Assembly: GCA_964354655.1 (NCBI GenBank)
Contig: CAYHAL010000003.1
Coordinates: forward strand, 3,670 to 67,669
DNA length: 64,000 bases
Source of the DNA: an uncultured Dehalococcoidales bacterium
Lineage (GTDB): Bacteria > Chloroflexota > Dehalococcoidia > Dehalococcoidales > E44-bin46
Direction: 5' to 3'
This document shows, piece after piece, positions 4,517 to 32,678 of the stretch. The notes beneath the pieces were generated by a model. The model did no database searches. It was not told the origin of the DNA and saw only the letters and a list, made by a program, of their open reading frames with translations. Each line of letters starts with the position of its first letter. Position 1 is the stretch's first letter. The position numbers were made by a program, and so were the translations under genes.

Positions 4517-4553
4517 CTATTGAATACTTACTTGGAGCAAGGAAACAGCAATC

Positions 4554-6302: not shown

Positions 6303-6344
6303 CCACTATTAAATAAAGGGAAGGCTAAAAGGAGATTTATCTAA

Positions 6345-7427: not shown

Positions 7428-7548
7428 TTCATATCTAACCACTACCTAATATGCCTTTTAACTATAGACTAACATTATGCTATAATAAGCTAATTTGGCT
7501 TAACAATTATTCGTGTTTTTAGCACGGTAAGTAGAGCGGAGAAGGTTA

Positions 7549-16556: not shown

Positions 16557-16585
16557 GATTGCTCCCGCCAAGCTGGTTATTAAAA

Positions 16586-16630
16586 AATAACCCGAGTAAG
16601 TAGGTCATTACTCGGGTTATTTTTATTTTT
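16586..16630. terminator. Bidirectional Rho-independent terminator between convergent livM and livG
   Basis: AATAACCCGAGTAA (16586-16599) pairs with TTACTCGGGTTATT (16608-16621). An A-tract precedes it and TTTTATTTTT follows. Confidence 0.7.
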
Positions 16631-16671
16631 GTCGTTAAAATAGCCGTTACCGAGCTATAGGTAAGTTGATA

Positions 16672-17442
16672 TTAACCAAGAAGCTCTGCTCTTCCCAGGT
16701 AGGCTTCGATAACCTCTTCATTCGACTGTATTTCCTTGGGTTTGCCTTCAGCAAGCTTCCTCCCGAAACTGAGCACGGTTATGTAGTCGCACACTCCCAT
16801 GACCGTCTTCATATCGTGCTCTACCAGTAGCACGGTTATCCCCTCTTTCCGTATCCTCTTAATTATGCTTAACATATGTGCCTTTTCCGTAGGGTTCATA
16901 CCGGTAACCGGTTCATCTAGCATGAGCAGTTTTGGCTCTGCCGCCAGAGCAACACTAACCCCCAATGCCCGCATATAGCCGTGAGGAAGGTTTATAGCCA
17001 GTTCATCCTTGATGTGCGTCATCTCCATAAAGTCAACTATCTCCTCGGCCTTCTTCAGGGCTTCCCTTTCCACCCTTCTGGTGCTAGGAGTACTACCCAT
17101 CACCCCAAAAACATTTTCCCCGGCATGCAGGTGACGCCCAACGGATATATTTTGCAGCACAGTGAAATTCATAAACAACGCAGTCTGCTGGAAGGTCCGG
17201 ATGAGGCCCCTTCTGGCTACTTTACTTGGCGGGAGGATAGTTATATCCTCGCCCTGATACCATATAGTCCCCGTCGTTGGTAGATAGACCCCACTGATAA
17301 CATTATACAGGGTTGTCTTTCCCGAACCATTAGGGCCAATGAGCCCTCTGATTTCCCCTTCGTTCACCTCCATATCAAAATCGCTTAGAGCAGCCAAACC
17401 GCCGAAATACTTACTCACCCCTTTGACTTCAAGTAGAGCCAT
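16672..17442 (-). CDS. livG: Liv-type ABC ATP-binding protein (LivG family), unit 1
   Basis: Walker A GPNGSGKTT, Walker B LLMLDEP, and the LivG-type C-terminus VIEAYLG. I chose the ATG at 17442, which is preceded by GGAAAGGAGGG. Confidence 0.85.
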   Translation of the reverse strand: MALLEVKGVSKYFGGLAALSDFDMEVNEGEIRGLIGPNGSGKTTLYNVISGVYLPTTGTIWYQGEDITILPPSKVARRGLIRTFQQTALFMNFTVLQNISVGRHLHAGENVFGVMGSTPSTRRVEREALKKAEEIVDFMEMTHIKDELAINLPHGYMRALGVSVALAAEPKLLMLDEPVTGMNPTEKAHMLSIIKRIRKEGITVLLVEHDMKTVMGVCDYITVLSFGRKLAEGKPKEIQSNEEVIEAYLGRAELLG

Positions 17443-17836
17443 AAACCAGCCCTCCTTTCCTACCATGGTATGAATAAAAAGCAGAGCTACTGGTGTGAAT
17501 TTAGCATAGGTGGCTTAGTTTGTCAATAGAGTGTGGGTGGTGGTTCTGTTCGGCTGACGTTGATAACCCTAGAATAGATTAAGCAATTATCACCTTCAAA
17601 AGGCCTCATTAGCTGTCGGCAAAGCTTGTGCCTGTGGGATTTTATCAGCTTACGCCGCTCTTCATCCTCGCTAATGGTCCCCTCCTTCCACTTCTCGGCA
17701 ACAATGCTTGACACGAGGGCAGGCGTGTGCTACACTTCCCGCCGTAAGCTGGTAGTGGGCTGAAAAATAGCCGGCTTTTAAGCGTAACCACAATCGTTTA
17801 TTTTTGCTGCTCTAACAATAGCCAGAATTTTTATTT

Positions 17837-18673
17837 ATGATGTCTATTACATTAACAGAAACTCAAAAACAACGCCTGCGAGAATTGGATGCTGATACAA
17901 ACTTGGTAGAAAAGGTATTCAGCAATGCCCAAGAGAGGGACGCAAGTTTCAAGATGATAGAGAAAAGGTTGATTGGAGAGGAAAAACAGCGTTTACAAAA
18001 CCTCCGCAACTATCATCGCTACCCCATGATTTGCCAAGTAGAGAGGACCCTTGTAGATAAGCTTACAGAAGAAGGTTTTGTACAAGTCATTACTCCGATA
18101 ATAATAACTAAAAGGTTTTTAGAAAAGATGTCTATCACCGCCAACAATCCCCTGATAAATCAGGTTTTTTGGCTCAGTAAGAATAAATGTTTACGGCCTA
18201 TGCTGGCACCGAATCTTTATCATCTCTTAAGACGGCTTGTTCGCTTATGGGAAAAACCTATTCGTATTTTTGAAATAGGCCCATGCTTTCGCAAAGACTC
18301 TAAAGGGAGTGAGCATCTAAATGAGTTTACCATGTTAAACCTTGTTGAGTTGGGCTTATCCCAAGAAAGCAGACTTGAGCGGTTAAAAGAGTTGATTTCC
18401 CTCTTAATGGAGGCTGTAGGTATAAATGAGTACCAATTGGTTTCGAAGCCGTGTGAAGTCTATGGGGAAACAGTGGACATCATGGCTGGTACCGAACTCT
18501 GTTCGGCAGTCGTGGGTCCCCATCCATTAGATGACGCCTGGGGAATAGTCGACCCGTGGGTGGGATTAGGGTTTGGTTTGGAGAGGCTGGTGATGGTGAG
18601 ACAGGGATATCAAAATATTCAGAGAGTGGGACGCAGCCTCATATATCTTGATGGAATTAGACTGAACATTTAA
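17837..18673 (+). CDS. pylSc: Pyrrolysyl-tRNA synthetase, catalytic C-terminal protein (bacterial split form)
   Basis: 278 aa of class II aaRS core with PylRS-like segments: RPMLAPNLY, EIGPCFRKDSKGSEHLNEFTMLN and GLGFGLERL. It is followed by pylB and pylC. Confidence 0.9.
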   Translation: MMSITLTETQKQRLRELDADTNLVEKVFSNAQERDASFKMIEKRLIGEEKQRLQNLRNYHRYPMICQVERTLVDKLTEEGFVQVITPIIITKRFLEKMSITANNPLINQVFWLSKNKCLRPMLAPNLYHLLRRLVRLWEKPIRIFEIGPCFRKDSKGSEHLNEFTMLNLVELGLSQESRLERLKELISLLMEAVGINEYQLVSKPCEVYGETVDIMAGTELCSAVVGPHPLDDAWGIVDPWVGLGFGLERLVMVRQGYQNIQRVGRSLIYLDGIRLNI

Positions 18674-18715: not shown

Positions 18716-19831
18716 GTGATAAGAAACAATAGCTGTTTTTTGATAGAGGAAATATTAGATAAAGCACTCTGCGAGGAGCCTCTAAGCAGGGGGGAGATTC
18801 TTTATCTACTTAGATTAAATAAAGCTGAAGAAGTAAACAAACTTTTTACAGTAGCACAAAGATTAAGACGTCGATACTTTGGTAATAACATTTTTCTTTA
18901 TGGGTTCTTGTACTTCTCCACGTGGTGTCGCAATAACTGCGCTTTCTGCTGTTATCGCGCCTCCAATAGATTATGCCAGCGGTATCGAAAGACTGACCGC
19001 CAAATAATTGAGGTAGCCCTCGACATGGCAGCATCCGGTGTTCACTTGCTCGATTTAACCATGGGGGAGGACCCTTTTTATTACGAAAAAGAGGATGGTT
19101 TTGAACCACTGTTGCATTTGATAAAAGAAGTTAAAAGGGAAACATCTTTACCTATAATGATTTCCTTTGGAGCTATTCCCGACGAAGTTTTAAAGGAACT
19201 ATTTGAGACAGGGGCGGAATGGTATGCTTGCTATCAGGAAACCCATAATGAAAAACTCTTCTATCAGCTTCGGTTGGGCCAGAGTTACAGTGATAGGCTT
19301 AACAAAAAATATAAGGCGGCTAGGTTGGGCCTACTCATAGAGGAGGGGATATTGAGTGGGGTGGGGGAATCATTAGATGATGTAGCTGACTCCATGGAAG
19401 AGATGCGGAAGATGGGGGCTCATCAGGTACGGGTTATGAATTTTATTCCTCAACAGGGAACCCCCATGCAGGATTTCCCACCGCCCCCCAAAATGCGTGA
19501 GCTGCTGATTATTGCTGTTCTGCGTCTACTATTTCCCCGTAGGTTGATACCTGCCTCTCTCGATGTATATGGCATTGATGGGCTCAAGGGAAAGCTAGAA
19601 GCCGGAGCTAATGTAGTGACTTCATTGATTCTTCCCCATTCGGAAATGGTGGGTGTAGCCCAAAGTACTTTGGATATCTGTGAAGGTTATCGAACGGTAA
19701 AAGGAATAACCCCTATACTCAATGAATTGGGATTAACCAAGGCAGAGCTTCATGATTATGTCTCATGGATTGAGAATGAAAGGAAAAGCTATATAAACAC
19801 ATACCGCTTCAGGGAAAAGGTGTTATTGTGA
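18716..19831 (+). CDS. pylB: Radical SAM methylornithine synthase
   Basis: 371 aa with the radical SAM motif CRNNCAFC. It sits between pylSc and pylC. GTG start. Confidence 0.9.
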   Translation: MIRNNSCFLIEEILDKALCEEPLSRGEILYLLRLNKAEEVNKLFTVAQRLRRRYFGNNIFLYGFLYFSTWCRNNCAFCCYRASNRLCQRYRKTDRQIIEVALDMAASGVHLLDLTMGEDPFYYEKEDGFEPLLHLIKEVKRETSLPIMISFGAIPDEVLKELFETGAEWYACYQETHNEKLFYQLRLGQSYSDRLNKKYKAARLGLLIEEGILSGVGESLDDVADSMEEMRKMGAHQVRVMNFIPQQGTPMQDFPPPPKMRELLIIAVLRLLFPRRLIPASLDVYGIDGLKGKLEAGANVVTSLILPHSEMVGVAQSTLDICEGYRTVKGITPILNELGLTKAELHDYVSWIENERKSYINTYRFREKVLL

Positions 19832-21009
19832 GAGTAGCCATTGTTGGGGGGAAACTGCAGGGAGTTGAAGCGGCTTTCCTAGCTCGTGAAGCAGGGTGGG
19901 AAGTAATTCTTATCGATAGGAAACAGAGCCCACCAGCAGCCAGATTATGCCAATCTTTTTATCACTGTGATGTTGTTAGAGATGTTTCATCTTTACCTCG
20001 GTTATTAGAAAAAGTTGATTTGATTATCCCGGCAGTTGAGGATGTTATTGCCCTTAGAGCTTTACAGAAATGTGCTGCCGAGATAAACATCCCTTTAGCT
20101 TATGATGCCAAAGCATATTTTATCAGCCATTCCAAGAAGCGTTCTAACCGCCTATTTGAAAAATTGGGCATTCCCTTGCCCCAAAGTTGGCCCCAGTGTG
20201 GACTGCCACTTATAGTAAAACCATCTGCCTCAAGCGGGAGTCATGGAGTATCCAAGCTATGCACTGAACAGGAACTGGGTGATTTTATTAAACGGGTAGG
20301 TTCAGGGCTGAAACACTGGATTTTACAGGAATATGTGGAGGGTCCGTCCTATTCTATCGAGGTCTTGGGTTTAGTTGGACGTTACGTAGCTCTCCAGGTC
20401 ACCGAGCTCGAGATGGATGGCGACTATGACTGTGAACGGGTTCTCGCCCCTGCCGAAATTCCAGAGTCTTTAGATAGGCAAATTAAAGAAATTGCCCTCA
20501 CTATTGCCAAGAGCCTTCGTTTGAAAGGAATTATGGATGTTGAGGTTATCCTTGACCATGGTGGTGTTCCTAGGGTGTTAGAAATTGATGCCCGACTTCC
20601 AAGTCAGACTCCTACCGCAGTTTATGAGTCCACAGGGATTAATATGTTGGAACTATTAGGGCACATATTTGTCACAGATACGATGCCTGTAATCCCTGAA
20701 ATAAAAGCATTAAGAGGAGTTGTCTACGAGCATATTAAGGTTTCCCAAAATGGTTTAGAATTTCTGGGAGAACATATTATAGGAGAAGTCGATTCCCTTG
20801 AAATTGTCCACGATTTTTTTGGAGCCGACGTAAGTCTGACAAACTTTAATTCATCGTCATTTCCTTGGGTAGCTACGTTGATTACTACCGGAGAAAGCCG
20901 AGAACAAGCGTGGCTTAAACGTCAGCAAGTTATTGAAAATATTAAAAGTTATCTTGGAAGACCCACTCGCTTCCAAAGCCAGCCTGAAGAGATGGTAAAA
21001 ACGGGTTAA
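19828..21009 (+). CDS. pylC: ATP-grasp 3-methylornithine--L-lysine ligase
   Basis: 393-aa ATP-grasp fold protein that overlaps the pylB stop by 4 nt. Its last 6 codons lie inside the pylT-derived repeat. Confidence 0.85.
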   Translation: MRVAIVGGKLQGVEAAFLAREAGWEVILIDRKQSPPAARLCQSFYHCDVVRDVSSLPRLLEKVDLIIPAVEDVIALRALQKCAAEINIPLAYDAKAYFISHSKKRSNRLFEKLGIPLPQSWPQCGLPLIVKPSASSGSHGVSKLCTEQELGDFIKRVGSGLKHWILQEYVEGPSYSIEVLGLVGRYVALQVTELEMDGDYDCERVLAPAEIPESLDRQIKEIALTIAKSLRLKGIMDVEVILDHGGVPRVLEIDARLPSQTPTAVYESTGINMLELLGHIFVTDTMPVIPEIKALRGVVYEHIKVSQNGLEFLGEHIIGEVDSLEIVHDFFGADVSLTNFNSSSFPWVATLITTGESREQAWLKRQQVIENIKSYLGRPTRFQSQPEEMVKTG

Positions 21010-21067
21010 TCGGGAAGATCACGCAGACTCTAAATTTGTGTAGCCGAGTGTAACTCTTGCCCCGCCA
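21003..21067 (+). pseudogene. Degenerate pylT copy (tRNA-Pyl-like; acceptor and T stems disrupted)
   Basis: The sequence is GGGTTAATCGGGAAGATCACGCAGACTCTAAATTTGTGTAGCCGAGTGTAACTCTTGCCCCGCCA. The D arm, the 6-bp anticodon stem, the CUA anticodon loop and the T loop are all retained. The 5' acceptor is shortened (GGG versus GGGGGG), and 4 nt are missing from the 3' T-stem/acceptor region relative to 29854..29925. Confidence 0.55.
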
Positions 21068-21071
21068 TGAC

Positions 21072-21099
21072 TTGACTAGAATAACAGGGGAGGTATAAT
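21072..21099 (+). promoter_or_regulatory. Candidate sigma70-type promoter for the mtbC-mtbB pair
   Basis: TTGACT (21072-21077), 16-nt spacer, TATAAT (21094-21099). Confidence 0.5.
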
Positions 21100-21266
21100 A
21101 ATTTAATAATTGGATAAGAGACAAGGGAAGATTCAGTGTGGTAGGTGGGTTGCGTTTAACACTGGGCTGATGAGTTGATTTCAAAGTAGTGAAAGGGGGT
21201 TAAAATGTTTTAATACGTGAGTGTTGTTACCAGCAGGCATTTTATCCAATAAAGGAGGTCGATACT

Positions 21267-21920
21267 ATGGGAAAAGAGCAACAAGAATTATTAAAAGAGG
21301 CAAAAAATTCAATTATTAATTTCGATGTAGATAAGGCTAAGGAAACAGCCAAGAAAGGCTTGGCGCTTGGGATTACGCCGGCTGTAATAATAAGTGAGGG
21401 ATTTGTTCCTGGGATAACTGAGGTCGGTGATCTTTTTGATAGGGGACAATTATTCTTGCCGGAGTTGATATTGGCGGCCGAAGCCATGAAAGCCGGAACA
21501 ACTATATGTGAGGCTGCACTCCCCAAAAGTGAACTTAAGGCGAAGAAGAAGGTTGTAATAGGGACTGTAGAAGGAGATATTCACGACATTGGAAAATCAA
21601 TTGTCGTATCCTTCTTAATGGCCAACGGCTTTGAAGTCTATGATATAGGTAGAGATGCCCCAATTGAGAATTTTATTAATAAGGCTCGTGAGGTAAACGC
21701 AGATGTGATTGGAAGCAGTGCTTTATTGACGACAACTATGGAGGGGCAGAAGAAGATAGAGGAGGAGCTAAGGGAAGCCGGGTTGCGAGATAAAGTCAAG
21801 ACAATTGTGGGTGGAGCGCCGTGCAGCCAGGGATGGGCTGATCGGATAGGAGCCGATGCCTATGCTGAAAATGCTGTGGATGCAGTAATAAAGATAAAAG
21901 AATTAACCGGTTTAAGTTAA
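21267..21920 (+). CDS. mtbC: Methylamine-specific corrinoid protein (B12-binding, MtbC/MttC family)
   Basis: 217 aa with the B12-binding motif GDIHDIGK (DxHxxG) and ...GGAP. It lies directly upstream of mtbB and is a close paralogue of 32716..33366. Confidence 0.85.
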   Translation: MGKEQQELLKEAKNSIINFDVDKAKETAKKGLALGITPAVIISEGFVPGITEVGDLFDRGQLFLPELILAAEAMKAGTTICEAALPKSELKAKKKVVIGTVEGDIHDIGKSIVVSFLMANGFEVYDIGRDAPIENFINKAREVNADVIGSSALLTTTMEGQKKIEEELREAGLRDKVKTIVGGAPCSQGWADRIGADAYAENAVDAVIKIKELTGLS

Positions 21921-21944
21921 AAATATGTAGAAAGGAGGTGATTG

Positions 21945-23363
21945 ATGATGGCAAAGACGCTACAGCGCATGGGAGATGGTCGTATGGTGGAGATGACCGA
22001 GGCTGAGGTGAGGAAAGACATAGAAGAGGGGACTAAAGATGCTGCTAGCAGAGCCAAGGTTCCCCCGCTTTCTGAAGATGAGATAAAGCATATATTGGAT
22101 ATTTACACTCGGCCAGAAAGGGTTGTCAGCGTAGAGCCGGGGAACGAAGTTGTTCTATCCCATGATGAGGGTACCGTTAAAATAAATGCTGGTGTGTGTG
22201 GTGGAGCCGGATTAGGGATAGATTGCGGCAGGACGGTTGCCTCTGAGCTTTACGAGAGGGCGCTAGGTGCTGATATTATAGAATACGGCCATATTGACTA
22301 CAGCTTTAAGCCAATAAGGCCTATTTTGGCTGATGAGCGAATATTGGTGGAGCGAGCCTTATTGGTTACTACTGCCCCCTTCCTTTACGGGGCGATGCCC
22401 AACTTAGGCTTATATACTCAACCTGAAGGGCCCTTCCCCAATCCAACAGAACTGTTAAACAAGGGCCTTATAAAAGAAGCCAGGGAAAGCGGTGAAAGGA
22501 TGGTCGAGCAGGCGACTAACGATATGGTTTATATAGCCAGTGGTATCTATGAAGCTGGAGCCGATGCAATCAACTTTGATACTACAGGAGCGTTTGGAGA
22601 TCTAGACTTTGCCGCCGCTTTGACAGCAACTGAGCGCCTTAAGAAAAAGTATCCTGATATGTGTATAGAGATGGGGATGGCAGGGGAGTTTGTTCTAGGA
22701 ATACACGGAACGATAACCTATGATGGGGTGCGTTTGGCAGGTTTATACCCTCATCAACAGGTTAAATTAGCCGAGAAAGCTGGGGTTACTATTTTCGGAC
22801 CGGTGTGCAATATCGTCACTTCTAGGTCGTGTGCCTGGAATATAGCCCGTGTCATTACCTTCACCAAAGCCTGTGCTAAAGCTTCAAAGATACCAATCCA
22901 CAATAATATGGGAATGGGGGTTGGTGGCATTCCCTTGAATGATACCCCACCGGTAGATGCTGTAACCAGGGCGTCAAAAGCAGCTGTGGAAATCTGCCAG
23001 TTAGATGGGGTGTAGGTAGGCATTGGAGACATTCATGGCATGCTCGAAGCTCACGCCATGGCCTCAGGTATGGGTGGAATGCGTACCGCCGGAGATCTGG
23101 TGGCACGTATGGAAATGGCCAGAGGCATGAGAATTAAAGAAGCGAAAGAGTATGTCGCCAGCAAATTGAAGGTCTCGTTGAGGGAGCTCTCTGACCCGAT
23201 AGTCATGGGTGAGGTGAGAGATGAGCTTAAGCTAGGCCTCATTGCCCAGATGCCTAATCGTCCTAAGGGGATAGAGGCCAAGTTCCGTATTGCTGAACTA
23301 TTAGGAATCGAAATTAACTCGGTGAATAGATTCAAAGAAAAAGCCGGGCTTCCTGTTCGTTAA
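21945..23363 (+). CDS. mtbB: Dimethylamine:corrinoid methyltransferase with an in-frame UAG (pyrrolysine) codon at 23013-23015
   Basis: Track ORFs 21942..23015 and 23040..23363 share one frame and are separated by only a TAG. The joined product is about 472 aa and matches my recollection of Methanosarcina MtbB throughout (GHIDYSFKP, LYGAMPNLGLY, GMGVGGIP, DAVTRASKA, then TAG, then MRTAGDLVARME...KEAKEYVA). Confidence 0.88.
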
Positions 23364-23388
23364 ACCGAATAACTAATAGTGGGGGTGG

Positions 23389-23427
23389 AAAAAGACATCC
23401 ACCACCCCATATGGGGTGGTGGATGTC
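23389..23427. terminator. Perfect 15-bp hairpin between convergent mtbB and mtmB (terminator, T-tract on the - strand side)
   Basis: GACATCCACCACCCC (23394-23408), loop ATAT, GGGGTGGTGGATGTC (23413-23427). GGAAAAA precedes it, giving a U-tract for the minus-strand transcript. Confidence 0.7.
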
Positions 23428-23446
23428 TAGTGAGTTAAGCAACCTT

Positions 23447-24847
23447 TTACAGCTTAAACTCGAACCCAATTTTCTCCATGGTTTTCATTGCCTGCCCCAG
23501 CACTTGTAGATGCTCATCGGTGGGCTTCAGAGTGATAACGTTGTAGCACTCCTGGAAGGTCTTTCCTAAGGGTGCCGTGTTGAAGTTCCTCTTTGGCCCT
23601 GTCCCCTCGTAGTGGGTCACCAGCTTATCAAGTAAGTAGTTCACCTTTTCTGTCTCCATGCCGGCTACAGCTCGGGCGGCATAAGCCATCATGCGTGCTT
23701 CTATTGGGGTGGTGTAGTCTAGTCTCGTGCCTTTGGCCGAGGCGCAACCGCTCATAATCTCACGACCGCTAGCAGTATCGGTAATAGCCTGCCCAGCCGC
23801 CTCCAGCAAGCACATCTCAGTGCATGGTCCAGCGGCAGTATAATACTGGTTACCGGTGATAAAGTGTGAGTGGCGCTCAATAGCCATATTGGCATGCCCA
23901 GCGATCAACAACGTCTCCCTAGCCGTTGTGATTCCCCAGCGCACATGAGTTGGTCCATCCAGATGCCAGTCTGCTCCCACCAGTACGGGAGAGTTTAGAT
24001 GAGTGGCGGTGCAAACGATGGTGGTCTCTTCGAGCCCTCCGGCCCAGCCTCCCATGATAGGCATCTGCTCACACATAACAATATCGCCGTTCATCCTGTA
24101 ATGAGCAACAAAGGTAAGCGCCTCGAGATCAATCTTGAGCTCGCATAGCTGACTTACCTCATGATTATCACATGGTCTCATTCCTTCAGGAAAATCGGCA
24201 GCGATAACTCCCGCCGTGGTAAGCGGAGTCTCAGGGCCCTAGAAGCCCATCCCGGGGCGACCAGCTCGCCGTACTGCTTCACGAAGCGCCATTGCTTCTG
24301 CTTTAGCCGCCAAAATATCCCATGGGGTATTGGATGCCAAGGGGTGTCCATAGATAGTATTCCAAACCCCGTTGACGATGCAGTCTACCAAGGGCTCCCT
24401 GGCGAATGCTTCATGCGTCTCAATAAAGATATCCTCACTGACTGGGGCTCCAGTCGGCCCACCTTGGCACAGGGGTGGGCAGGGGTCATCAAAACTTCGG
24501 CCAGTCACACGCCGGGCATCCCGTCCCTCACCGATGACGATCTCACGAGGGACACCAGCCATAGTGTTCAGTATCTCCTCTTCGGTGTACTTGATGACAC
24601 GGCCGGTATCGATGCATAAAGTCCCACAGGTGACCAGCATCTCAAGGCCGGCCTGGAATAGGCGGTCTATCATATCCATATCAGTGGGGATAATCTTGGT
24701 CTTGTCGAACTTAAGATTATACTTTTCCTTTAATTTCCTTGCTGTTTCGGGGATGATTTTTCGATCCCATTCCGCCTCATCTACTTTGGGACCGGTAAGT
24801 GCCCGATCATAACTCTCGAACACATCACCCCTCTCTTTAACTACCAT
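23447..24847 (-). CDS. mtmB: Monomethylamine:corrinoid methyltransferase with an in-frame UAG (pyrrolysine) codon at 24241-24239
   Basis: Track ORFs 24239..24847 (202 aa) and 23447..24181 are in frame, and only a TAG interrupts them. The context is GRPGMG-TAG-GPET. Downstream segments NHEVSQLCELKIDL, WHLDGP, AAGPCTEMCLLEA, ITDTASGREI and GKTFQECY match remembered MtmB. Confidence 0.88.
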
Positions 24848-24962
24848 TTTCGCCTCCTTTATTTTGATTAAATCTTAGTTCATCACAGCTAAAAACTAAC
24901 CTGATATACCACCTCCTTTCTCTTAATTTGACAACACTATCTCACCGTATAAAGTTATAGTA

Positions 24963-24991
24963 TATTAAGTTAAGTATCATCGGCTTGTCAA
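24963..24991 (-). promoter_or_regulatory. Candidate promoter for mtmB
   Basis: On the minus strand: TTGACA (24991-24986), 17-nt spacer, TTAATA (24968-24963). Confidence 0.3.
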
Positions 24992-25149
24992 ATAAATGTT
25001 ATGGCTCATTAATCTTTGGTGATAACTTCTGGAGGCGATAGAGCTATTGAGGCGGCAAGAACCGTAAGTATTCCATAGAGGAGGAGATAAGGAAGGATAG
25101 TATTGGACGGGCATTGGAATTATACTTGATTGGACTATCAAAATGGCTA

Positions 25150-25857
25150 TTAGCCACCTAAATAGGCTTTCTTCACCTGTTCGTTTTCACGTAAGTCTTT
25201 GGCATCGCCCTTTAAGACAATGCTACCTGTCTCTAAGACATAGGCCTTTCGAGCCAGACTGAGAGCGAGGCGGGCATTCTGCTCCACTAAAACAATAGTT
25301 TTGCCCCCTTGGCTAATATCCTTTATGATTTTGGCGATCTCCATGACTAATATAGGCGACAAGCCCAGCGAGGGTTCATCCAAAAGGAGCAATTTAGGAT
25401 TGGACATCAGGCCACGCCCCATAGCCAGCATCTGCTGCTCACCACCGCTTAAGGTGCCGGCATATTGCTTCTGCCTTTCCTTTAGAACAGGAAAATGCCT
25501 AAAAACTTCTTCCAGGTCTCGGTTTACCCCGTCTTTATCTTCCCGCAGAAAGGCCCCCATGTAGAGGTTCTCCATCACCGTCATTTGGGGGAAGACCCTT
25601 CTTCCTTCGGGAACCTGAGCAATCCCCAGCTTATTGATTTTTTCGGGTGCTAATCTATCTATTCTCTGGCCTTCAAACCAGATTTCCCCCGAGGTGGGGT
25701 GCTTTAAGCCGGAGATAGCCCTCAAGGTGGTGGTTTTGCCTGCCCCATTGGAACCGATAAGGGTAACAATACTACCCTCTTCCACCTCCATGGAGACATC
25801 CCTAACGGCGGCTACCTTGTGATAATAAACCGTAACGTCCTTTACATTAAGCAACAC
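25150..25857 (-). CDS. livF: Liv-type ABC ATP-binding protein (LivF family), the only livF in the window
   Basis: Walker A GSNGAGKTT, signature LSGGEQQM, Walker B LLLLDEP. GTG start. It is preceded in frame by a 12-codon relic of a LivG C-terminus (EDAIEVYLGAEE, 25858-25893). Confidence 0.85.
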   Translation of the reverse strand: MLLNVKDVTVYYHKVAAVRDVSMEVEEGSIVTLIGSNGAGKTTTLRAISGLKHPTSGEIWFEGQRIDRLAPEKINKLGIAQVPEGRRVFPQMTVMENLYMGAFLREDKDGVNRDLEEVFRHFPVLKERQKQYAGTLSGGEQQMLAMGRGLMSNPKLLLLDEPSLGLSPILVMEIAKIIKDISQGGKTIVLVEQNARLALSLARKAYVLETGSIVLKGDAKDLRENEQVKKAYLGG

Positions 25858-25967
25858 TTCTTCTGCTCCTAAGTAGACTTCGATAGCATCTTCTCATTGA
25901 TGCCACTTTAGTAGTTAGGATACTACAAAATTATCTTCTTGTCAATATAGCCGAAGGAGGAACGAGG

Positions 25968-27800
25968 TTACTCCAAATGGGGATGCCTAGGGAAGTGCAT
26001 ACTCTCTATGAAGACCCGGCTGAAGTCCTTTAGATAGGAAAGCTCGAAGTATTCCACCTGCTCCGTCAGTCTTTGAATCTCTTCCCACTTCCCTCGATTT
26101 AGAAGGCAGAGCTTCGCTCCCTGTCCCGCCGTATTACCCACTGGCTTAATCTTGTTTAAGGGGAACTCGGGTAGCATTCCGATCCGAAGGACACTCTCCT
26201 TACTGACATAATTTCCAAAAGCCCCTGCCAAGTAGACCTTCTCCACCTCATTCAGGGTCACTCCCAACTCCCGCAACGCGATCTCTACCCCTGAGCGAAT
26301 AGCTCCCTTGGCCAACTGTAGCTCTCTCACATCCTGCTGGGTCAGGTAAATGGGTTTACTCCCATCACTCACCAGGAACTGAAGTTGGCCTTTCTCCCCC
26401 CGATGGATGCGATCACTGATGGGGAGGTTCGTCCGTTTCCCAAAGTTTCCCTTCTCATTGATTAACCCTACTTTGCAGAGCTCCCCCCCCAAGTCTATCA
26501 GTCCCGAACCACAGATCCCTTTTGGGACCCCATCCCCAATTATTTCCAGCCTTAAATCCTTGTCGTCTAGGAAAACGTGAGCCACTGCTCCAGGAAAAGC
26601 ACCCATTCCATACTTGATCCGTGCCCCCTCAAATGCTGGCCCCGCTGGTGTGGAGCATGCCAGTAAACGGTCTTTGTTTCCTAAAACAATTTCAGCGTTA
26701 GTTCCTATATCCACAAAGAGCTGGATACCTTTAGCTTGGTGAAGCCTGGTATAGAGAATACCGGCTGTGATGTCTGCTCCCACATAGCCTGAGATGCTGG
26801 GTAGGATGTGCACTTGCCCTTCTGGGTTCATGTCCAAGCCCAGCTCTAGCGCTGGCAGTATTAAGTTATCCCTCAGCACCGGGATGAAGGGGCTATGGTC
26901 AATGTTGGAGGGGTCTATGCCCGTGAAGAGGTGAATCATAGTGGGGTTCCCTGCCACAGTGGCTTTGTAGATATGGACAGGGCTCACCCTAGCTGCTTGA
27001 CACAACTGCTTAATCACCATGTTGATCCCTGAAGTTACCGCCATTTGCAGCTCCCTTAAACCCTCTTCTCCCTGCTCATGGACTTTTTTGATTCGACTGA
27101 TGACATCGTCCCCAAAGCTTCGCTGGGGGTTCATCCGGGAACGTACTGCAAGCTCCACACCTGTGTTTAGGCTTAAGAGATAGCCAGCTAGGGTTGTCGT
27201 CCCAATGTCTATAGCCACACCATACTGGGCTTCGGTTGTGTCCCCTGGTTCCAGGTCTAATACATGGTTTGCTGCCCAGGTTACCGTAAATTTAAAATCC
27301 CCTTCCCTAAGGAGGTTTGGGGCTTTCCTCAGAACTTGTAGGGGGAAAGTCAGTTGACCTTCCCCGAGTTCTTCTTGGAAACGAACGGTATCCGGGCGTT
27401 GGTCCTCTTGGCTTGGCGTGGGAAGCTCTAAATAAGCCTTTTTAACTCCGCTGTCCAAGGGGATACGAAGTACCTTGTTTAGTAGTTCCTTGGCGCGGAC
27501 AAGCTCTTCTACTTCAGGAATCTCCAGAACCAAATCCCGGTCAATATGCTGGATACAGGAAAGACGCCAGCCGGCTTCAAGCTCTGCCTCTGTCAGGTGC
27601 ACTCGCTCTGATTCAGCAGGCGCTCTAGCCCCCTTTGTGAAGAGGGCTCGACACTTCCCGCAGGTTCCCATCCCTCCACAAGCACTTGGCACGGAATAAC
27701 CCTGCCTGACAAGAAAGTGGAAAAGGTTCTCCCCTTCTTTAGCTTTTAACCTTTTCTTCTGGGGAAGGATGACGATGTTATATGTCTTTTCCTTCATCAT
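25968..27800 (-). CDS. RamA-like reductive activase of corrinoid enzymes (N-terminal 2Fe-2S ferredoxin + ASKHA/DUF4445 domain)
   Basis: 610 aa. The N-terminus has the plant-type ferredoxin motif CGGMGTCGKCR...C, followed by a long ASKHA-like region (DIGTTT, DIGTNAE). Confidence 0.75.
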   Translation of the reverse strand: MMKEKTYNIVILPQKKRLKAKEGENLFHFLVRQGYSVPSACGGMGTCGKCRALFTKGARAPAESERVHLTEAELEAGWRLSCIQHIDRDLVLEIPEVEELVRAKELLNKVLRIPLDSGVKKAYLELPTPSQEDQRPDTVRFQEELGEGQLTFPLQVLRKAPNLLREGDFKFTVTWAANHVLDLEPGDTTEAQYGVAIDIGTTTLAGYLLSLNTGVELAVRSRMNPQRSFGDDVISRIKKVHEQGEEGLRELQMAVTSGINMVIKQLCQAARVSPVHIYKATVAGNPTMIHLFTGIDPSNIDHSPFIPVLRDNLILPALELGLDMNPEGQVHILPSISGYVGADITAGILYTRLHQAKGIQLFVDIGTNAEIVLGNKDRLLACSTPAGPAFEGARIKYGMGAFPGAVAHVFLDDKDLRLEIIGDGVPKGICGSGLIDLGGELCKVGLINEKGNFGKRTNLPISDRIHRGEKGQLQFLVSDGSKPIYLTQQDVRELQLAKGAIRSGVEIALRELGVTLNEVEKVYLAGAFGNYVSKESVLRIGMLPEFPLNKIKPVGNTAGQGAKLCLLNRGKWEEIQRLTEQVEYFELSYLKDFSRVFIESMHFPRHPHLE

Positions 27801-27812
27801 TTGTTGGGTGGC

Positions 27813-28565
27813 TTATCTAGCCTTAAGACCCCGCTGGATCCATTCCCTTTCCCCCTCAACGCACTTTTGGGTTGACTTCTCTCGCACCGTGCCAAGGGGC
27901 ATAGCACAGGCATAAGACTTCCGCGGGTCCATCATGCACGACTCAGTGAGGTGCACTCCGATGTGGCTTCCGTCGACAACGGTGAATAACTTCTTCTGTT
28001 CCCGCGTGTCCCAATCTCCGTAACCAGGACTCCACCAGTAGACTACTACCCCACCGCAATCTCTATATGCCGGACACTTCTTGCCGATACAGATGCCGTG
28101 GGTGATTGCTTGATAGCCCTCGGGGCGGACATGGTCTTGGATTATCTCCCTCACCTTATAGGCCATGATATCCACAGCCGCTGAGCCAAACATATCCAAA
28201 ATATATCCCAGAACAGAATCCCCACCCTGGATAAGCTTCATAGCCTCCTCCTCCACACGCGGTCCAATGGTGATTATAAAAGCGGCTAGCTCTTTTGCCT
28301 CACGATGGCGAAGCGCCAAATCCCGGCTGTCAAATGAAACACCACCCTCGACCTCTACAGAAGAAGAGGTTACTCTCCCTATTTGGGAAATACCGTAACA
28401 CGCTACCGGCTCTAGTAGGGTCGGCCCAATCTCCATTGCCTGGTGAAAGACTTTTTGAATAGCCGGTGATGCTTGACTCGAGTTAGGATAGCCCAAATAA
28501 CGCCACACCTCATCTGAGCTTACCTCCACGTTTGAGAACTCAGCCTCAGGTACTATCTGAAGCAT
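27813..28565 (-). CDS. MetH activation-domain-like protein (vitamin B12-dependent methionine synthase activation region family)
   Basis: 250 aa with EVWRYLGY near the N-terminus and SPGYGDW...LF...IGVHLTESCMMDPRKS near the C-terminus. Both resemble the Met_synt_B12 domain, as recalled from memory. Confidence 0.5.
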   Translation of the reverse strand: MLQIVPEAEFSNVEVSSDEVWRYLGYPNSSQASPAIQKVFHQAMEIGPTLLEPVACYGISQIGRVTSSSVEVEGGVSFDSRDLALRHREAKELAAFIITIGPRVEEEAMKLIQGGDSVLGYILDMFGSAAVDIMAYKVREIIQDHVRPEGYQAITHGICIGKKCPAYRDCGGVVVYWWSPGYGDWDTREQKKLFTVVDGSHIGVHLTESCMMDPRKSYACAMPLGTVREKSTQKCVEGEREWIQRGLKAR

Positions 28566-28586
28566 AGCCCCCTCCTTTATCTCACT

Positions 28587-29390
28587 TTAACTCATTTTGC
28601 TTCTTACATACCGAACATATTGAAGACAGTGGGCATCAATCCCTAATAGAGCTTCTGAGGCTCGCAGGATGTTTTTCATTTCTTCATCCTTGGGATTAAT
28701 AACAGCCATATCCAATCCTGCCTCAAGAAGCATGGCTAAAAAGGCTTGGTTGAGCAGGGTGCGGCTGGGTAATCCAAAGGAGACATTGGATAACCCTGTT
28801 GTTGTCTTCACCCCTCGGCTCCCATAGCACCTCTTGATCTCCCGTATGGTATTGATGACAACACGGGCTTGGTCTGGATTACTCCCGATGGACATCACTA
28901 AAGGGTCTATGAACAACCGCTGCAGACTTACTCCGGCTTCTTCTAGAGTATTAATTAGCTGTTCGACTTCCTGAAGGCGCTCCTCCACGGTGTTAGGCAT
29001 CCCCGTCTTTCCCCCCATGGTCAGACCGATAATATCGGCATCGTACCCTTTAACAATGGGGATGAGCCCCTGTTGTAGTCTAGGGTCATTATTGATGGAG
29101 TTGATAACAGGGCGGGCTCGACAAAGCTTTAGTCCTGCTGCCATAGCCTCAGGTTTAGGGGTGTCGATGGCTAGGCGTACCTCTCCCACCTCATCATAAA
29201 TAAGCCCAATCACCCACTTCATGTCATCAATCTCCTGCTCCATGCTGGTAGCAGTATTAATATCAAGAATGTCAGCCCCAGCCTCTACCTGCTCTCGGGC
29301 AAGACGCCGGATAGTAGCTTCATCCTTGGCTTGAAGAGCCTCCTTGACCGCTTTTCGCGTCGAGTTCAATAATTCTCCAATAATTAACAC
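28587..29390 (-). CDS. Pterin-binding methyltetrahydrofolate:corrinoid methyltransferase (MeTr/MtgA/AcsE-like)
   Basis: 267 aa of DHPS-like pterin-binding barrel: IIGELLNSTRK, GADILDINT and TTGLSNVSFGLP. Confidence 0.75.
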   Translation of the reverse strand: MLIIGELLNSTRKAVKEALQAKDEATIRRLAREQVEAGADILDINTATSMEQEIDDMKWVIGLIYDEVGEVRLAIDTPKPEAMAAGLKLCRARPVINSINNDPRLQQGLIPIVKGYDADIIGLTMGGKTGMPNTVEERLQEVEQLINTLEEAGVSLQRLFIDPLVMSIGSNPDQARVVINTIREIKRCYGSRGVKTTTGLSNVSFGLPSRTLLNQAFLAMLLEAGLDMAVINPKDEEMKNILRASEALLGIDAHCLQYVRYVRSKMS

Positions 29391-29461
29391 TTCGTCCCTC
29401 CTTTAATCGGTATCGGCTATTTTACTCTCTCTCCGTTTTCCTATTCCTCGTCCTCATTATC

Positions 29462-29824
29462 TTAATCCTTAGCCCCCACCTCTCGTGTCTTTCCCCCCAA
29501 ATTGTCTAAATAGGCAATCCGGCGACGCTTAAAAACTGTTGCCGAATATTTTTCAATCTTCCATTTAGGAATTCCACATTTCTCGCATGTCCTAGAAAAC
29601 CATTTATTACGAAGCCATCGGGCAGCACGACTATTTCTAGAATCGTGTATCACCATCTGTTTATTACAATGAGTAACCACATAAGCATAAGAATCACTGG
29701 TAATTTCAAAGGTTTTGATTCCATGGAGAACTCCCCGCCGGGAAGGCCATAGTTTTATCTTTTCTACCAATTTAAAAAGGGGGACTCGTCTCCAATAGAT
29801 TTTTTTTCGTGTCTTACCCGACAA
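29462..29824 (-). CDS. pylSn: Pyrrolysyl-tRNA synthetase N-terminal tRNA-binding protein (bacterial split form)
   Basis: 120 aa with a TTG start behind GGGGGAGAGAG. Segments KLWPSRRGVLHGIK..., NSRNSRAARWLRNKWFSRTCEKCG resemble the PylRS N-domain (zinc-binding, basic). It lies immediately downstream of pylT. Confidence 0.8.
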   Translation of the reverse strand: MSGKTRKKIYWRRVPLFKLVEKIKLWPSRRGVLHGIKTFEITSDSYAYVVTHCNKQMVIHDSRNSRAARWLRNKWFSRTCEKCGIPKWKIEKYSATVFKRRRIAYLDNLGGKTREVGAKD

Positions 29825-29853
29825 CTCTCTCCCCCATTATTTTGATCAAATTG

Positions 29854-29925
29854 TGGCGGGGGGTCCGAGAGTTACACTCGGCTACACAAATTTAGAGTCT
29901 GTGTGATCTTTCCGATTAACCCCCC
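29854..29925 (-). tRNA. pylT: tRNA-Pyl (anticodon CUA), CCA encoded
   Basis: The minus-strand sequence is GGGGGGT-T-AATC-GGAAA-GATC-A-CACAGA-CTCTAAA-TTTGTG-TAG-CCGAG-TGTAACT-CTCGG-ACCCCCC-G-CCA. It has a 7-bp acceptor, one nucleotide between acceptor and D stem, a 5-nt D loop without GG, a 6-bp anticodon stem, a 3-nt variable loop and a non-canonical T loop. These are the published hallmarks of tRNA-Pyl. Confidence 0.9.
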
Positions 29926-29940
29926 GTTTTTACCATGCCT

Positions 29941-30771
29941 TCACTGAACACAACTGGCATGAACAAACATGGTAGCCACACCAATCTCCAGCACATCATG
30001 AATCAAACGCTCTTTGACCAAGAAATAAGCCTCTTCACTTAATCCCAGCGGTATCCCGGGAGCAGCAATAAAAGTTTCTGGCTTGATATGTCTTGCCTGT
30101 ATAATATTAGCCGAAGGTGAAGCATCAAAAAATACTGTATATCGCCTAAGTGCCTCTTCTAGATTCCTTTCCACTGTAATTTCATGCCCTTTAACCAGTG
30201 ACTCCATTCTATCTTGATTAGGGTCAAAAGCTGCTACCTTCGCTCCCTTCTTTTTAAGAGATAAAACTGCATTCCAGCCCACCCGACCTGCTCCCCCAAT
30301 CACTAACACCTGGCGCTGGCTTAAATCTCCTGCCATGGCTTCTAATGCCGAAACATATCCTTTTGCTGTTGCCTCTACATTATCAATAATCCTCCTTAAG
30401 GGAAAGTTCAGGGCAATAAACCGGTTATCATCAGCCAAAAAAACAATGTCTGCGCCTTTCTCAATCCCTTCCGCCAGTCCAGCTATATCGCTATCCCTTG
30501 TTTTAAAAGCATTAACTCCAATGTGAATCAAAATTCCTTCAACCGCCTCAACAAAGTTTTCAATAACTCCTTGTCCCGAGGTTATGGGAACCACAGCTAC
30601 CGTATGGGAACCGATGGCAGCTCTTACCTTTTCTTCGCTGTCTTCTATAGAGCGACTGGCAATCTCTTTGAGTGACAAACCTGTTTTTCGAACTAACTCA
30701 GCCTCATAGGCAGGAAGTTTCTGTATTATATCCATTATATCTTCTTTTTTCAGGCGCGTCACCTCATTCAC
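29941..30771 (-). CDS. pylD: Pyrrolysine synthase (NAD-dependent dehydrogenase)
   Basis: 276 aa with the Rossmann motif VLVIGGAGRVGWNA. It is adjacent to pylT/pylSn and completes the pylBCD set. Confidence 0.85.
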   Translation of the reverse strand: MNEVTRLKKEDIMDIIQKLPAYEAELVRKTGLSLKEIASRSIEDSEEKVRAAIGSHTVAVVPITSGQGVIENFVEAVEGILIHIGVNAFKTRDSDIAGLAEGIEKGADIVFLADDNRFIALNFPLRRIIDNVEATAKGYVSALEAMAGDLSQRQVLVIGGAGRVGWNAVLSLKKKGAKVAAFDPNQDRMESLVKGHEITVERNLEEALRRYTVFFDASPSANIIQARHIKPETFIAAPGIPLGLSEEAYFLVKERLIHDVLEIGVATMFVHASCVQ

Positions 30772-30966
30772 CCTCTGGACGATGAAAATATACCAGCAAG
30801 ACCCACCCCTTCAGACTGGCTTTGGAAGCAGTGGGTCTTCCAAGGTAACTCTATCTTGAAACTTGCATCCCTTTCTTGGCTATCGAAAATTCTAACATAC
30901 CCCGCTCGCTCCTTGTCAAGCGCAGTAGCTTTCCCCCCTGATTCAACTCCTAGCTTTCTGAAGAGT

Positions 30967-31205: not shown

Positions 31206-32678
31206 ATGATTAGAGGAACGAGAGCCTCATATACACAACTTTCAGGCTGTGGTCTCAATATGTTTACCGATGATGAATTAGCTGAGCTGCATAGAGCCAC
31301 ACTGGATGTTCTAGAAGATGGCGGCATCATGGTGCTCAATGATGAAGCGCAGGAGATTTTCTACTCCCACGGCTGTAAAGTCGATAAGAAAACTAACATC
31401 GTCAAGATACCCCCTTACCTCGTCAATGAGGCAATAAATTCAGCTCCATCAAAGGTACTGCTTGCCGGTCGAAATCCCAAGTATGACATCGTCTTGGAAG
31501 GCACCAGGGTGGCAAACACCACCTTTGGTGTAGGCATAAAGGTGCTTGATTTAGACACGGGCAAACACAGAAACTCGACAAACAAAGATCTGGCTGAATC
31601 CGCAATATTAGCCGATGCTATTGAGGGAGTAGATGTTTTTACCCAGTCAGTGGTCCCCAGAGATGCACCTAGTCAGGTGGAAGACCTTATTGCTGCCGAG
31701 ACATGTCTTAGCAATTGTAGCAAACACTTCCACCATGTTGATATATTGTCTACCGAGAGTGTCAGAAGGTATTTTGACATGGGTGCTGCCATAGCCGGAA
31801 GCGCTGAGGAGATGAGGCGGCGACCGGTTTGTTCTATTCTAATCTGCCCGGTCAGCCCGTTGCAGCTTAGTCCTGAAGCCTGCGAGGTTATTATTGAATC
31901 GGCAAGGTTAGGCATACCCTGTAACATTTTGTCAATGGCGCTATCTGGGGGTACTGCCCCAGTCACCAATGCAGGAACACTGATAGTCCATAATGCCGAG
32001 GTGCTGGGGGGCATAACTTTAAGCCAGCTTACTAAGAAGGGAGCACCGGTAATCTATGGCAGCTCCACCACCATGTTCGATCTAGCCCTGGCCATCGCAC
32101 CGGTGGGAGCACCGGAAATGGGCATGATAAGCGCAGCGGTAGCCAAGCTTGGCCAGTATTACAACCTGCCGACTTATGTCTCCGGGACCTAGGCAGATTC
32201 TAAGGTACCTGATGCGCAGGCAGCTCACGAAAAAACGATAACAAATCTGCTGCCGGCCATCGCTGGGGCTAATCTGATTTATGGCATGGGTATGTTAGAA
32301 TCAGGACAGACTTGGAGTCATGAGCAACTGGTAATTGATAACGACATTGTAACTATGGTTAAACGGGTGATTCAGGGGATCGACGTTACCGATGATACAA
32401 TGGCCGTTGACATCGTAAAGCAGGCTCATAAGATAAAAGACTTCTTACATCAGAAACACACCATTCAGTTTATGAGAAGTCAATCAAGACCAAAATTGAT
32501 TGACCGCACTACCCGGGGAACTTGGGAGGCTAAGGGAGGCAAAGATTTAACCCAGAGGGCAAAAGAAGAAGCACGCAGGATCATAAAGACCCATCAACCT
32601 GAGCCTTTAAGCGATGATGTAAAGAAGACGCTACGCGAAATTGTTGACAGTGCTAGAAAAGAACTTGTACCTGATTGA
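31206..32678 (+). CDS. mttB: Trimethylamine:corrinoid methyltransferase with an in-frame UAG (pyrrolysine) codon at 32190-32192
   Basis: Track ORFs 31206..32192 and 32286..32678 share one frame. The only interruption is the TAG in ...YVSGT-TAG-ADSKVPDAQAAHEKT.... The joined product of about 490 aa has an MttB-family sequence (LNDEAQEI, ANLIYGMGMLESG). Confidence 0.9.

Follow-up and report, generated by a model that had tools for sequence, protein, structure and literature searches.

A degenerate tRNA-Pyl gene joined to the end of pylC as a probable relic of two inverted pyl cassettes in an uncultured Dehalococcoidales bacterium

Introduction

The canonical bacterial cassette for pyrrolysine (Pyl) is that of Desulfitobacterium hafniense, in which the genes follow the order pylTScBCDSn (order as given in PMC3941956), and Pyl systems have also been described in Chloroflexi/Dehalococcoidia (Mukai et al. 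2017, PMC5424206). Additional copies of pyl genes have been reported from archaea. Methanomassiliicoccus luminyensis has its pyl cluster in duplicate, together with a further pylC and an adjoining pylT (Borrel et al. 2014, PMC3941956), and Zhang et al. (2022, PMC9071458) describe one archaeon with two mutually orthogonal pairs of pyrrolysyl-tRNA synthetase (PylRS) and tRNA-Pyl. In this study we analyse a stretch of 64,000 nucleotides (nt) from an uncultured Dehalococcoidales bacterium (assembly GCA_964354655.1, contig CAYHAL010000003.1, positions 3,670 to 67,669 of the forward strand), hereafter the window, in which two sequences derived from pylT, the gene of tRNA-Pyl, face each other in inverted orientation. 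One of them, copy B (29854-29925, minus strand), is an intact gene between pylD and pylSn, and the other, copy A (21003-21067, plus strand), is degenerate and joined to the 3' end of pylC. Our comparisons with related loci suggest that copy A is very probably a pylT pseudogene and a non-functional relic, and that it was probably left behind when two inverted copies of a whole pyl cassette decayed in complementary fashion.

Results

The two pylT sequences lie in the arms of an inverted repeat that is longer than pylT itself. Gapped blastn aligns 20985-21092 (+) with 29943-29829 (-) over 115 columns at 82.6% identity (E = 2.5e-24), and a repeat search returns two ungapped pieces, 21003-21066/29859-29922 (64 nt, 91% complementary) and 20985-21005/29923-29943. 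The longest exact run common to both arms is 34 nt (21024-21057 = 29901-29868), for which we estimate a chance expectation of about 1e-11 in 64 kb. Alignment and repeat search of both loci thus bear out the inverted repeat that the initial annotation had placed at 20992-21067 and 29936-29854, with the correction that by gapped blastn it starts 7 nt earlier and ends 25 nt later. Its description as an inverted duplication of pylT was right in that pylT is repeated in inverted orientation, but pylT is not repeated alone: three collinear inverted blocks are found in both arms, 17929-17955/30879-30853, 20947-20995/30850-30803 and 20985-21092/29943-29829. From the collinear, inverted layout of these blocks it appears that an interval of at least about 4.2 kb, which reaches from pylSc to where pylSn starts, was once present twice. 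Each arm holds the intact genes that have been lost from the other, pylSc, pylB and pylC in arm A on the plus strand and pylD, pylT and pylSn in arm B on the minus strand.

Since the window is of metagenomic type, a chimera produced during assembly has to be considered as the source of the repeat, and it is true that repeats of this kind break short-read graphs and that the Logan contigs covering copy A end within the core. However, both junctions of copy A are found in contigs from five independent read sets, the left one in ERR4334735, ERR4334731 and ERR3804378 and the right one in ERR4334734, ERR3804377 and ERR4334731. These contigs end at 21053 on the left side and begin at 21028 on the right side because a k=31 graph must branch on the 34-nt shared core, which is the pattern predicted for a true second copy. 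The relatives described below agree: a 12-kb contig, L023, crosses its own copy A unbroken with the gene order of the window, L024 and L025 also cross theirs, L012 and L027 have the same gene order as the window, and PylC proteins ending in MVKTG, the terminus created by the junction, occur in three 90%-identity clusters. Assembly error, the caveat that came with the initial annotation, is thereby excluded as far as the repeat is concerned: both junctions are real, and the chance that an assembly chimera produced the repeat is negligible.

Copy B has the features of a working tRNA-Pyl. It is 72 nt long including an encoded CCA, and its minimum free energy fold is a cloverleaf (-28.3 kcal/mol, z = -3.3) with a 7-bp acceptor stem (GGGGGGU/ACCCCCC followed by G73 and CCA) stacked on a 5-bp T stem, a 6-bp anticodon stem, a CUA anticodon and a 3-nt variable loop. 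Standard tRNA tools, the check suggested with the initial annotation, could be run but found neither copy and are uninformative without a dedicated model: ARAGORN reports only tRNA-Arg and tRNA-His in the whole window, and the Rfam tRNA model gives no match at either copy, at the gathering threshold or at E <= 10. Because neither tool matched, a dedicated covariance model was built from ten distinct intact tRNA-Pyl sequences of the clade (structure 96.8% paired). With this model copy B scores 102.9 bits, which together with the cloverleaf agrees with its earlier description as a textbook tRNA-Pyl. The pylT sequence is identical, with no differences, in the window and in L001, L009, L013, L014 and L018, six loci whose PylD proteins are only 91-96% identical, and compensatory changes in the acceptor stem of relatives (G-C to A-U at 5:67, U-A to C-G at 7:65) back the 7-bp stem. 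Non-standard acceptor pairs also occur in otherwise intact tRNA-Pyl genes, namely G4-G69 in L015 (10911-10982) and L017 (1374-1445) and U6-C67 in L008 (449-520). Within the window, the UAG codons of mtbB, mtmB and mttB can apparently be read by copy B alone.

Copy A departs from this at its 5' and 3' ends. It is 65 nt long, and alignment with copy B shows, as had been claimed, that it keeps the D arm, the CUA anticodon arm and the T loop, and it keeps the variable loop as well; like copy B it shows CUA in an anticodon loop of 7 nt with a stem of 6 bp, and its variable loop has 3 nt. The A-to-G change in its anticodon stem is pairing-neutral as reported (A-U becomes G-U) and also occurs in L002. 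Two further point changes complete a total of three, an A-to-G in the D loop that the initial annotation did not list and a C-to-T at the 3' end, beside a 4-nt loss at the junction of T stem and acceptor. Together with the loss of three G from the 5' strand, 7 nt are missing, and a normal acceptor stem cannot form, as had been stated: only the three GGG/CCC pairs are left, on a T stem reduced to 4 bp with a C-C mismatch, in place of the 7-bp and 5-bp stems of copy B. The fold of copy A is no better than that of shuffled sequence (z = +0.95). Covariance-model scoring, by which the degeneracy could be judged, gives copy A 62.8 bits, 40 bits below copy B, and its orthologue in L023-L025 67.3 bits, against 92.6-102.9 bits at the 15 intact pylT loci (including L026, which lies outside the training set).

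The comparison with L023 also tells how copy A has evolved. Two substitutions are common to both copies, as are the loss of GGG on the 5' side and of CC on the 3' side; the L023 copy alone has four further substitutions, in the D stem, at position 32 and in the T loop, and the window copy alone has a further 2-nt loss and the C-to-T. In all, they differ by 5 substitutions in 65 nt (7.7%) and an indel, compared with a third-codon divergence of 8.4-9.1% between the same two loci in pylB and pylC. In L012 and L027 the split layout is kept, but the tail and the pseudo-pylT have been deleted between CTTGA repeats. The neutral divergence, the loss in L012 and L027 and the invariance of the functional pylT argue that copy A is an unconstrained relic, and on these comparisons we regard it as very probably a pylT pseudogene. 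Two other accounts of its sequence were considered and rejected. Selection on the copy-A core might be read from its 96% identity to copy B next to flanks at 68-90%, but the number of events per site is about that of the flanks and the comparison with L023 is neutral. Homopolymer sequencing error might explain losses from G and C runs, but eight independent contigs show the 3-G state, and bases outside homopolymers are also affected by the 3' lesion.

It is nevertheless worth asking whether copy A could serve as a short-acceptor tRNA, as a tRNA-like 3' element of the pylScBC message or as a decoy for PylSn. In the window it retains the D arm, the anticodon arm, the variable loop and the T loop, it persists in lineages whose PylC is 94-97% identical, and the losses in L023 (3 nt at the 5' side, 2 nt at the 3' side) still permit a 4-bp acceptor helix. 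PylSn binds the T-loop and variable-loop side of tRNA-Pyl. With very little probability, and perhaps in this lineage only, copy A might still offer that face of tRNA-Pyl which PylSn binds (D arm, variable loop, T loop) as a tRNA-like element closing the pylScBC message; if so, it would titrate PylSn or couple the fate of the pylScBC mRNA to free PylSn. The neutral rate and the loss in sister lineages argue against such titration. They argue equally against any function of copy A, as do the positions struck by the L023 changes, a fold equal to that of shuffled sequence and the score 40 bits under copy B, so that we regard a functional copy A as highly improbable.

The history of arm A can be read from related loci. 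Loci L001-L003 are from Dehalococcoidales/Dehalococcoidia metagenome-assembled genomes found in a PylD scan of species genomes (three loci, none of them from the source genome), 13 loci were recovered from metagenome contigs by searching with the tRNA core, and L023-L028 came from PylC homologues and their contigs. The gene pylT lies between pylD and pylSn at 18 of the 18 intact loci of the clade, and pylB-pylC-pylD-pylT-pylSn are contiguous in L002, L011, L016 and L026; we read the contiguous order pylC-pylD-pylT-pylSn as the ancestral one. On L026, whose PylC is 92% identical, arm A falls into three blocks, 20900-20994 = 3569-3664, 20991-21119 = 4524-4651 and 21139-21274 = 5005-5148. Because these are collinear, arm A equals the contiguous cluster minus 859 nt (the end of the pylC tail and pylD) and minus 353 nt (pylSn), and the deletion junctions could be mapped on L026, L016 and L002. 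At the pylC junction about 860 nt are missing, comprising the last 12 pylC codons and pylD (gap 3665-4523 on L026), and the pylSn deletion of about 350 nt lies between 21119 and 21139. The first junction, TGAAGAGATGG at 20985-20995 (+), is where the blocks 20947-20995 = 30850-30803 and 20985-21092 = 29943-29829 overlap. Its arm-B counterparts are TGAAGGGGTGG at the pylC tail and TGAAGGCATGG at the end of pylD, merged as TGAAGAGATGG in copy A; this pattern fits a deletion of pylD between short direct repeats (11 nt, with TGAAG..TGG microhomologies). The junction is followed by the remnant TAAAAAC of the pylD-pylT spacer (20996-21002, +), which precedes intact pylT in L012, L013, L014, L016, L018 and L019; 'ATGGTAAAAAC' is this native spacer, conserved before the intact pylT of relatives. 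Copy A is followed in turn by a remnant of the pylT-pylSn spacer and roughly the first six pylSn codons (21068-21119, +; within the block matching L026 4524-4651).

These junctions bear on the view that a single inversion or insertion split the cassette between pylC and pylD and duplicated only pylT at the breakpoint. The arms are indeed convergent, the pylT repeat is located at the pylC end, and L015 resembles a plain inversion of pylD through the activase gene without remnants. But a simple inversion duplicates nothing, and four ancestral segments are doubled and collinear in the window (the 5' part of pylSc, the pylC tail, pylT with both spacers and the start of pylSn). In addition, deletion between direct repeats fully accounts for the junction of pylC and copy A, and the leader that natively follows pylSn is retained in arm A. 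The initial annotation was thus right to place a rearrangement junction in the end of pylC and to see in the repeat a scar of the history that split the cassette; what does not hold is the route, since the junction is that of a deletion and the arms look like decayed duplicate cassettes. We consider a single inversion or insertion improbable.

Arm B shows the complementary losses. Read on the minus strand, it consists of a pylSc fragment of codons ~17-40, the pylC tail, pylD, spacer, pylT, spacer and pylSn. The pylC 3' tail remnant (30772-30850, -; 30850-30803 = 20947-20995 at 90%, with a 1-nt deletion) translates to ..FQSQSEGVGLAGIFSSSRG*, and its stop abuts the pylD start. This end is the C-terminus of the intact PylC of relatives (..SEGVGLAGIPSLSRG in P0008, ..SLSRG* in L016), with the same pylC-pylD junction. 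Joined to it is the pylSc 5' remnant (30853-30920, -; 30879-30853 = 17929-17955 at 93%), in which LDKERAGYVRIF-DSQERDASFKI aligns at the protein level with PylSc residues 17-40. Between the two remnants about 3 kb is missing, namely the rest of pylSc, pylB and most of pylC. The junction of the pylSc and pylC remnants is identical in L001, L012, L013 and L019, and because it is common to them, the 3-kb deletion predates these lineages. Comparison of the sequence preceding pylSc in arm A with that lying past the pylSc remnant in arm B gave no similarity that would mark the outer end of the duplication. The remnants form one open frame (30765-30923, -; ..ALDKERAGYVRIFDSQERDASFKIELPWKTHCFQSQSEGVGLAGIFSSSRG*) that ends at the pylD start and contains a TTGACA-19-TAGAAT motif (30911-30881); it is probably no gene, because a TAG interrupts the frame in L001.

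Taken together, the comparisons make it probable that two inverted whole-cassette copies decayed in complementary fashion. An ancestor of this Dehalococcoidia-type lineage would have carried two inverted pylSc-pylB-pylC-pylD-pylT-pylSn cassettes, a redundancy that would have permitted complementary loss. Arm A (+) would have kept pylSc, pylB and pylC. A deletion of about 860 nt between 11-nt direct repeats would have removed its pylD and another of about 350 nt its pylSn, and its pylT, now useless, would have decayed by small deletions in the acceptor G and C runs and by point changes. Arm B (-) would have kept pylD, pylT and pylSn, and about 3 kb between codon 40 of pylSc and the tail of pylC would have been deleted from it. 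What is left today would be a two-part convergent set without redundancy in the window, of which both arms should be needed.

As for the source of the second copy, we infer an inverted duplication. Horizontal transfer of a second cassette from a related organism, integrated in inverted orientation and followed by reciprocal decay, is the alternative. In its favour, pyl cassettes are regarded as mobile (PMC5424206), the two arms have different genes downstream of pylSn, and the mosaic structure of L019 shows that diverged cassettes recombine at pylT. Against transfer, the fragments that the arms share, which are now neutral, are still 90-93% identical, from which it follows that the two copies were very similar at their origin, and the annotation of the window contains no mobile-element genes next to either arm. 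Transfer therefore seems unlikely to us, but less so than a single inversion.

Several points weigh against a pair of decayed inverted cassettes. No genome with two complete inverted cassettes was found; none of the 28 loci has them, most of the contigs being too short to hold both arms, and the duplication is reconstructed from remnants. Two of these are slight: the pylSc remnant is short, with 27 nt at 93% (E = 1e-3 by itself), extended at the protein level to 24 codons at 46% identity, and the pylSn 5' remnant of arm A is weak, at about 62% over about 30 nt. The neutral-rate comparison of copy A uses the few sites of 65 nt. Recombination between lineages does occur here, because the mosaic of L019 breaks within pylT, and duplication within the genome or acquisition of a related cassette could each have supplied the second copy. 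It is also possible that the genome holds a further pyl locus beyond the window.

Related loci show further rearrangements of the same genes, among them deletions like those of the two arms, which agree with the proposed decay. In L019 (690-835, minus strand of the locus) the sequence is identical to arm B from pylD through the T stem of pylT and then continues with a divergent tRNA 3' end; after this switch follow a pylSn that is 70% identical, an arm-A-type leader and mtbB, so that the breakpoint lies inside pylT. L007 (640-990, -) has the order pylB-pylC-pylD-pylT-pylSn-mtbB with pylD cut internally to about 40 codons and an intact pylT, and in this locus pylD was lost independently, beside a live pylT. 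L003 (7458-7960) and L023 (11816-11983) have an arm-B-type locus without pylT and pylSn, in which the junction ..AAAACGG|AGAG.. stands directly before a methyltransferase gene. In L003 pylD is internally deleted and the pylC remnant has a different left end; upstream of this remnant (5800-7470) no more pyl pseudogene fragments were found. Because the arm-B-type locus has lost pylT, L023 has no intact pylT on its 12 kb, where mtbB and mtmB still have in-frame stops. The pylSc of L023 (291-1001) encodes 236 amino acids (aa) and the pylB of L024 (1142-2134) 330 aa, compared with 278 and 371 aa in the window; these short forms may reflect ongoing decay or sequencing error.

The deletion of pylD has changed the end of PylC. 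Because of it, pylC (19828-21009, +) reads through the old pylD-pylT spacer to a TAA in the dead tRNA: the protein ends ..QSQPEE|MVKTG*, with the TAA at 21007-21009, and the first 7 nt of copy A overlap the final codons and the stop of pylC. The statement that these codons are encoded by the repeat (..PEEMVKTG*, with the TAA inside copy A) is hence accurate. The MVKTG C-terminus is also present in P0001-P0003, and the ancestral tail is ..SEGVGLAGIPSLSRG in P0008. MVKTG stands in place of twelve non-conserved C-terminal residues. The tails of PylC homologues vary (SYIA, SYLD, SYLERPTCF, ..SLSRG, MVKTG) and the family model ends at residue 374, which argues that the tail is dispensable; judged by this variation, the altered C-terminus is probably harmless. 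The body of pylC is intact (TIGR03909, 433 bits, with residues 2-374 aligned to positions 1-372 of the 374 in the model), as are the other arm-A genes pylSc, the PylRS catalytic subunit (17837-18673, +; TIGR02367, 360 bits against a cut-off of 178, full length), and pylB (18716-19831, +; TIGR03910, 482 bits against 348). In arm B, pylSn, the PylRS N-terminal subunit (29462-29824, -; TIGR03912, 127 bits against 51), and pylD (29941-30771, -; TIGR03911, 267 bits against 150) are likewise intact, and all five pyl protein genes exceed the NCBIfam cut-offs at full model length. Exact-sequence look-ups of the PylD and PylSn of the window returned no record, probably owing to differing start-codon calls, and tblastn detected no further pyl gene copies in the window, which has one pylSc and one pylSn.

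Directly after the pseudo-tRNA stands a near-consensus sigma-70-type promoter, TTGACT-16-TATAAT (21072-21099, +; 11 of 12 matches), and this predicted promoter, judged only by its match to the consensus, may drive mtbC-mtbB. Its -35 box is part of the relic spacer that formerly followed pylT, and a like element is conserved in L012, L023 and L027. Between the pylSn deletion and mtbC lies a leader of about 130 nt (21139-21266, +; block 21139-21274 = L026 5005-5148), which is matched in L007, L008 and L019 and in relatives stands right after pylSn, before methylamine methyltransferase or corrinoid genes. It is conserved above the flanking genes (92.6% compared with L019) and contains the palindrome TTAAAATGTTTTAA at 21200-21213. 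A single instance of the leader is present in the window, no Rfam family matches it, and it may act as an operator or as a leader RNA. A role of its palindromic motif GTTAAAATGTTTTAATA as a repeated operator was rejected on account of its single occurrence in the window.

The suggestion that the repeat could serve as a substrate for further inversion did not hold up. Recombination within the core would leave two chimeric tRNAs whose acceptor halves do not match; both would have a defective acceptor stem and neither would be a functional pylT. The repeat is therefore a poor substrate for inversion. All relatives whose contigs span the region (L012, L023, L027) show one orientation only, and annotation of the window by open reading frames (ORFs) and profiles gives no recombinase gene between or beside the arms of the kind that would mark an invertible segment.

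On the plus strand, pylSc, pylB, pylC and copy A are followed by mtbC and mtbB, and, after a minus-strand block, by mttB and mttC; the minus strand carries mtmB, livF, a corrinoid activase gene, an ORF of 250 aa, a methyl-tetrahydrofolate (methyl-THF) methyltransferase gene, pylSn, pylT and pylD. Profile searches thus agree with the genes first listed between the arms (mtbC, mtbB, mtmB, livF, the activase, the methyl-THF methyltransferase and pylSn) and add the 250-aa ORF. The pair mtbC and mtbB (21267-23363, +; NCBIfam) is Pyl-dependent, with an in-frame TAG of mtbB at 23013 and a PYLIS_2 match of 64.8 bits. In mtmB (23447-24847, -) the in-frame TAG is at 24241-24239, with Pfam MtmB on both halves, and mttB has an in-frame TAG at 32190 (+). 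The Rfam matches PYLIS_2 (23013-23112, 64.8 bits) and PYLIS_3 (32190-32289, 93 bits) begin at the UAG of mtbB and mttB, respectively. Unique between the arms (25150-29390, -; NCBIfam, Pfam) are livF, the corrinoid activase, the 250-aa ORF, which is Met_synt_B12-like, and the methyl-THF:corrinoid methyltransferase. The genes of a branched-chain-type ATP-binding cassette (ABC) transporter are scattered (14723-17466 and 25150-25857), with livH and livM on the plus strand, livG on the opposite strand immediately ahead of pylSc, livF 7.7 kb away between mtmB and the activase gene, and a binding-protein gene at 33628-35100. This scatter suggests that more rearrangements have taken place around the pyl arms. 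Near its 5' end, the periplasmic binding-protein gene holds five 15-nt tandem repeats (33699-33798) that encode a proline/threonine-rich linker.

Discussion

Step by step, and with the deletion junctions mapped, our analysis documents how a genetic-code-expansion cassette was probably split, by duplication and complementary decay rather than by cutting. It also suggests that pylSc-B-C and pylD-T-Sn are able to work as separate transcription units in Dehalococcoidia-type bacteria. The finding opens no new mechanism and has no bearing on a long-standing question, but it matters for annotation in three ways. A naive sequence search would count two pylT genes in the window, only one of which is usable. 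Automated annotation of such genomes would, on the other hand, report no pylT, because the clade's functional tRNA-Pyl escapes both ARAGORN and the Rfam tRNA model. Finally, PylC annotations that end in ..MVKTG represent read-through into a dead tRNA.

How does this locus compare with the systems described so far? With D. hafniense it shares the gene set, the split PylRS and the linkage to mtmB, mtbB and mttB. Unlike in D. hafniense, pylT of this clade lies between pylD and pylSn, and in the window the set is divided into two convergent halves 8.8 kb apart. The archaeon of Zhang et al. resembles our case in having two pylT-derived sequences per genome. In that archaeon, however, both tRNAs and their synthetases are intact and are told apart by the discriminator base (PMC9071458), whereas the window has G73 in both copies, one PylRS (pylSc and pylSn) and one tRNA that is structurally dead. 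A second orthogonal PylRS/tRNA-Pyl pair was accordingly considered for the window and rejected, since there is one intact tRNA, one pylSc and one pylSn.

The proposed mode of origin finds a likeness in the tandem inversion duplications studied in Salmonella by Kugelberg, Reams and Roth. In these, inverted copies reportedly arise and then undergo deletions at microhomologies that leave asymmetric junctions, and they are said to be short-lived laboratory intermediates under selection for copy number. In contrast, the structure in the window is old and extends across several species-level lineages, and complementary loss of genes resolved it.

The closest parallel is M. luminyensis, where an extra pylC and pylT lie on the complementary strand about 15 kb away and this pylT lacks a tRNA fold and is likely a pseudogene (PMC3941956). 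M. luminyensis differs in being an archaeon with the order pylTSBCD and two further complete clusters, so that redundancy has been kept, whereas the present organism is a bacterium with split pylSc and pylSn in the order pylSc-B-C-D-T-Sn. Moreover, the window holds no complete cluster, its arms complement each other, and the pseudo-tRNA supplies the stop of pylC. The locus is thus a well-resolved further example of a pseudogene in a decaying duplicated cluster, and what is particular to it is that complementary loss has split the cassette and that a protein-coding gene has its stop within a dead tRNA.

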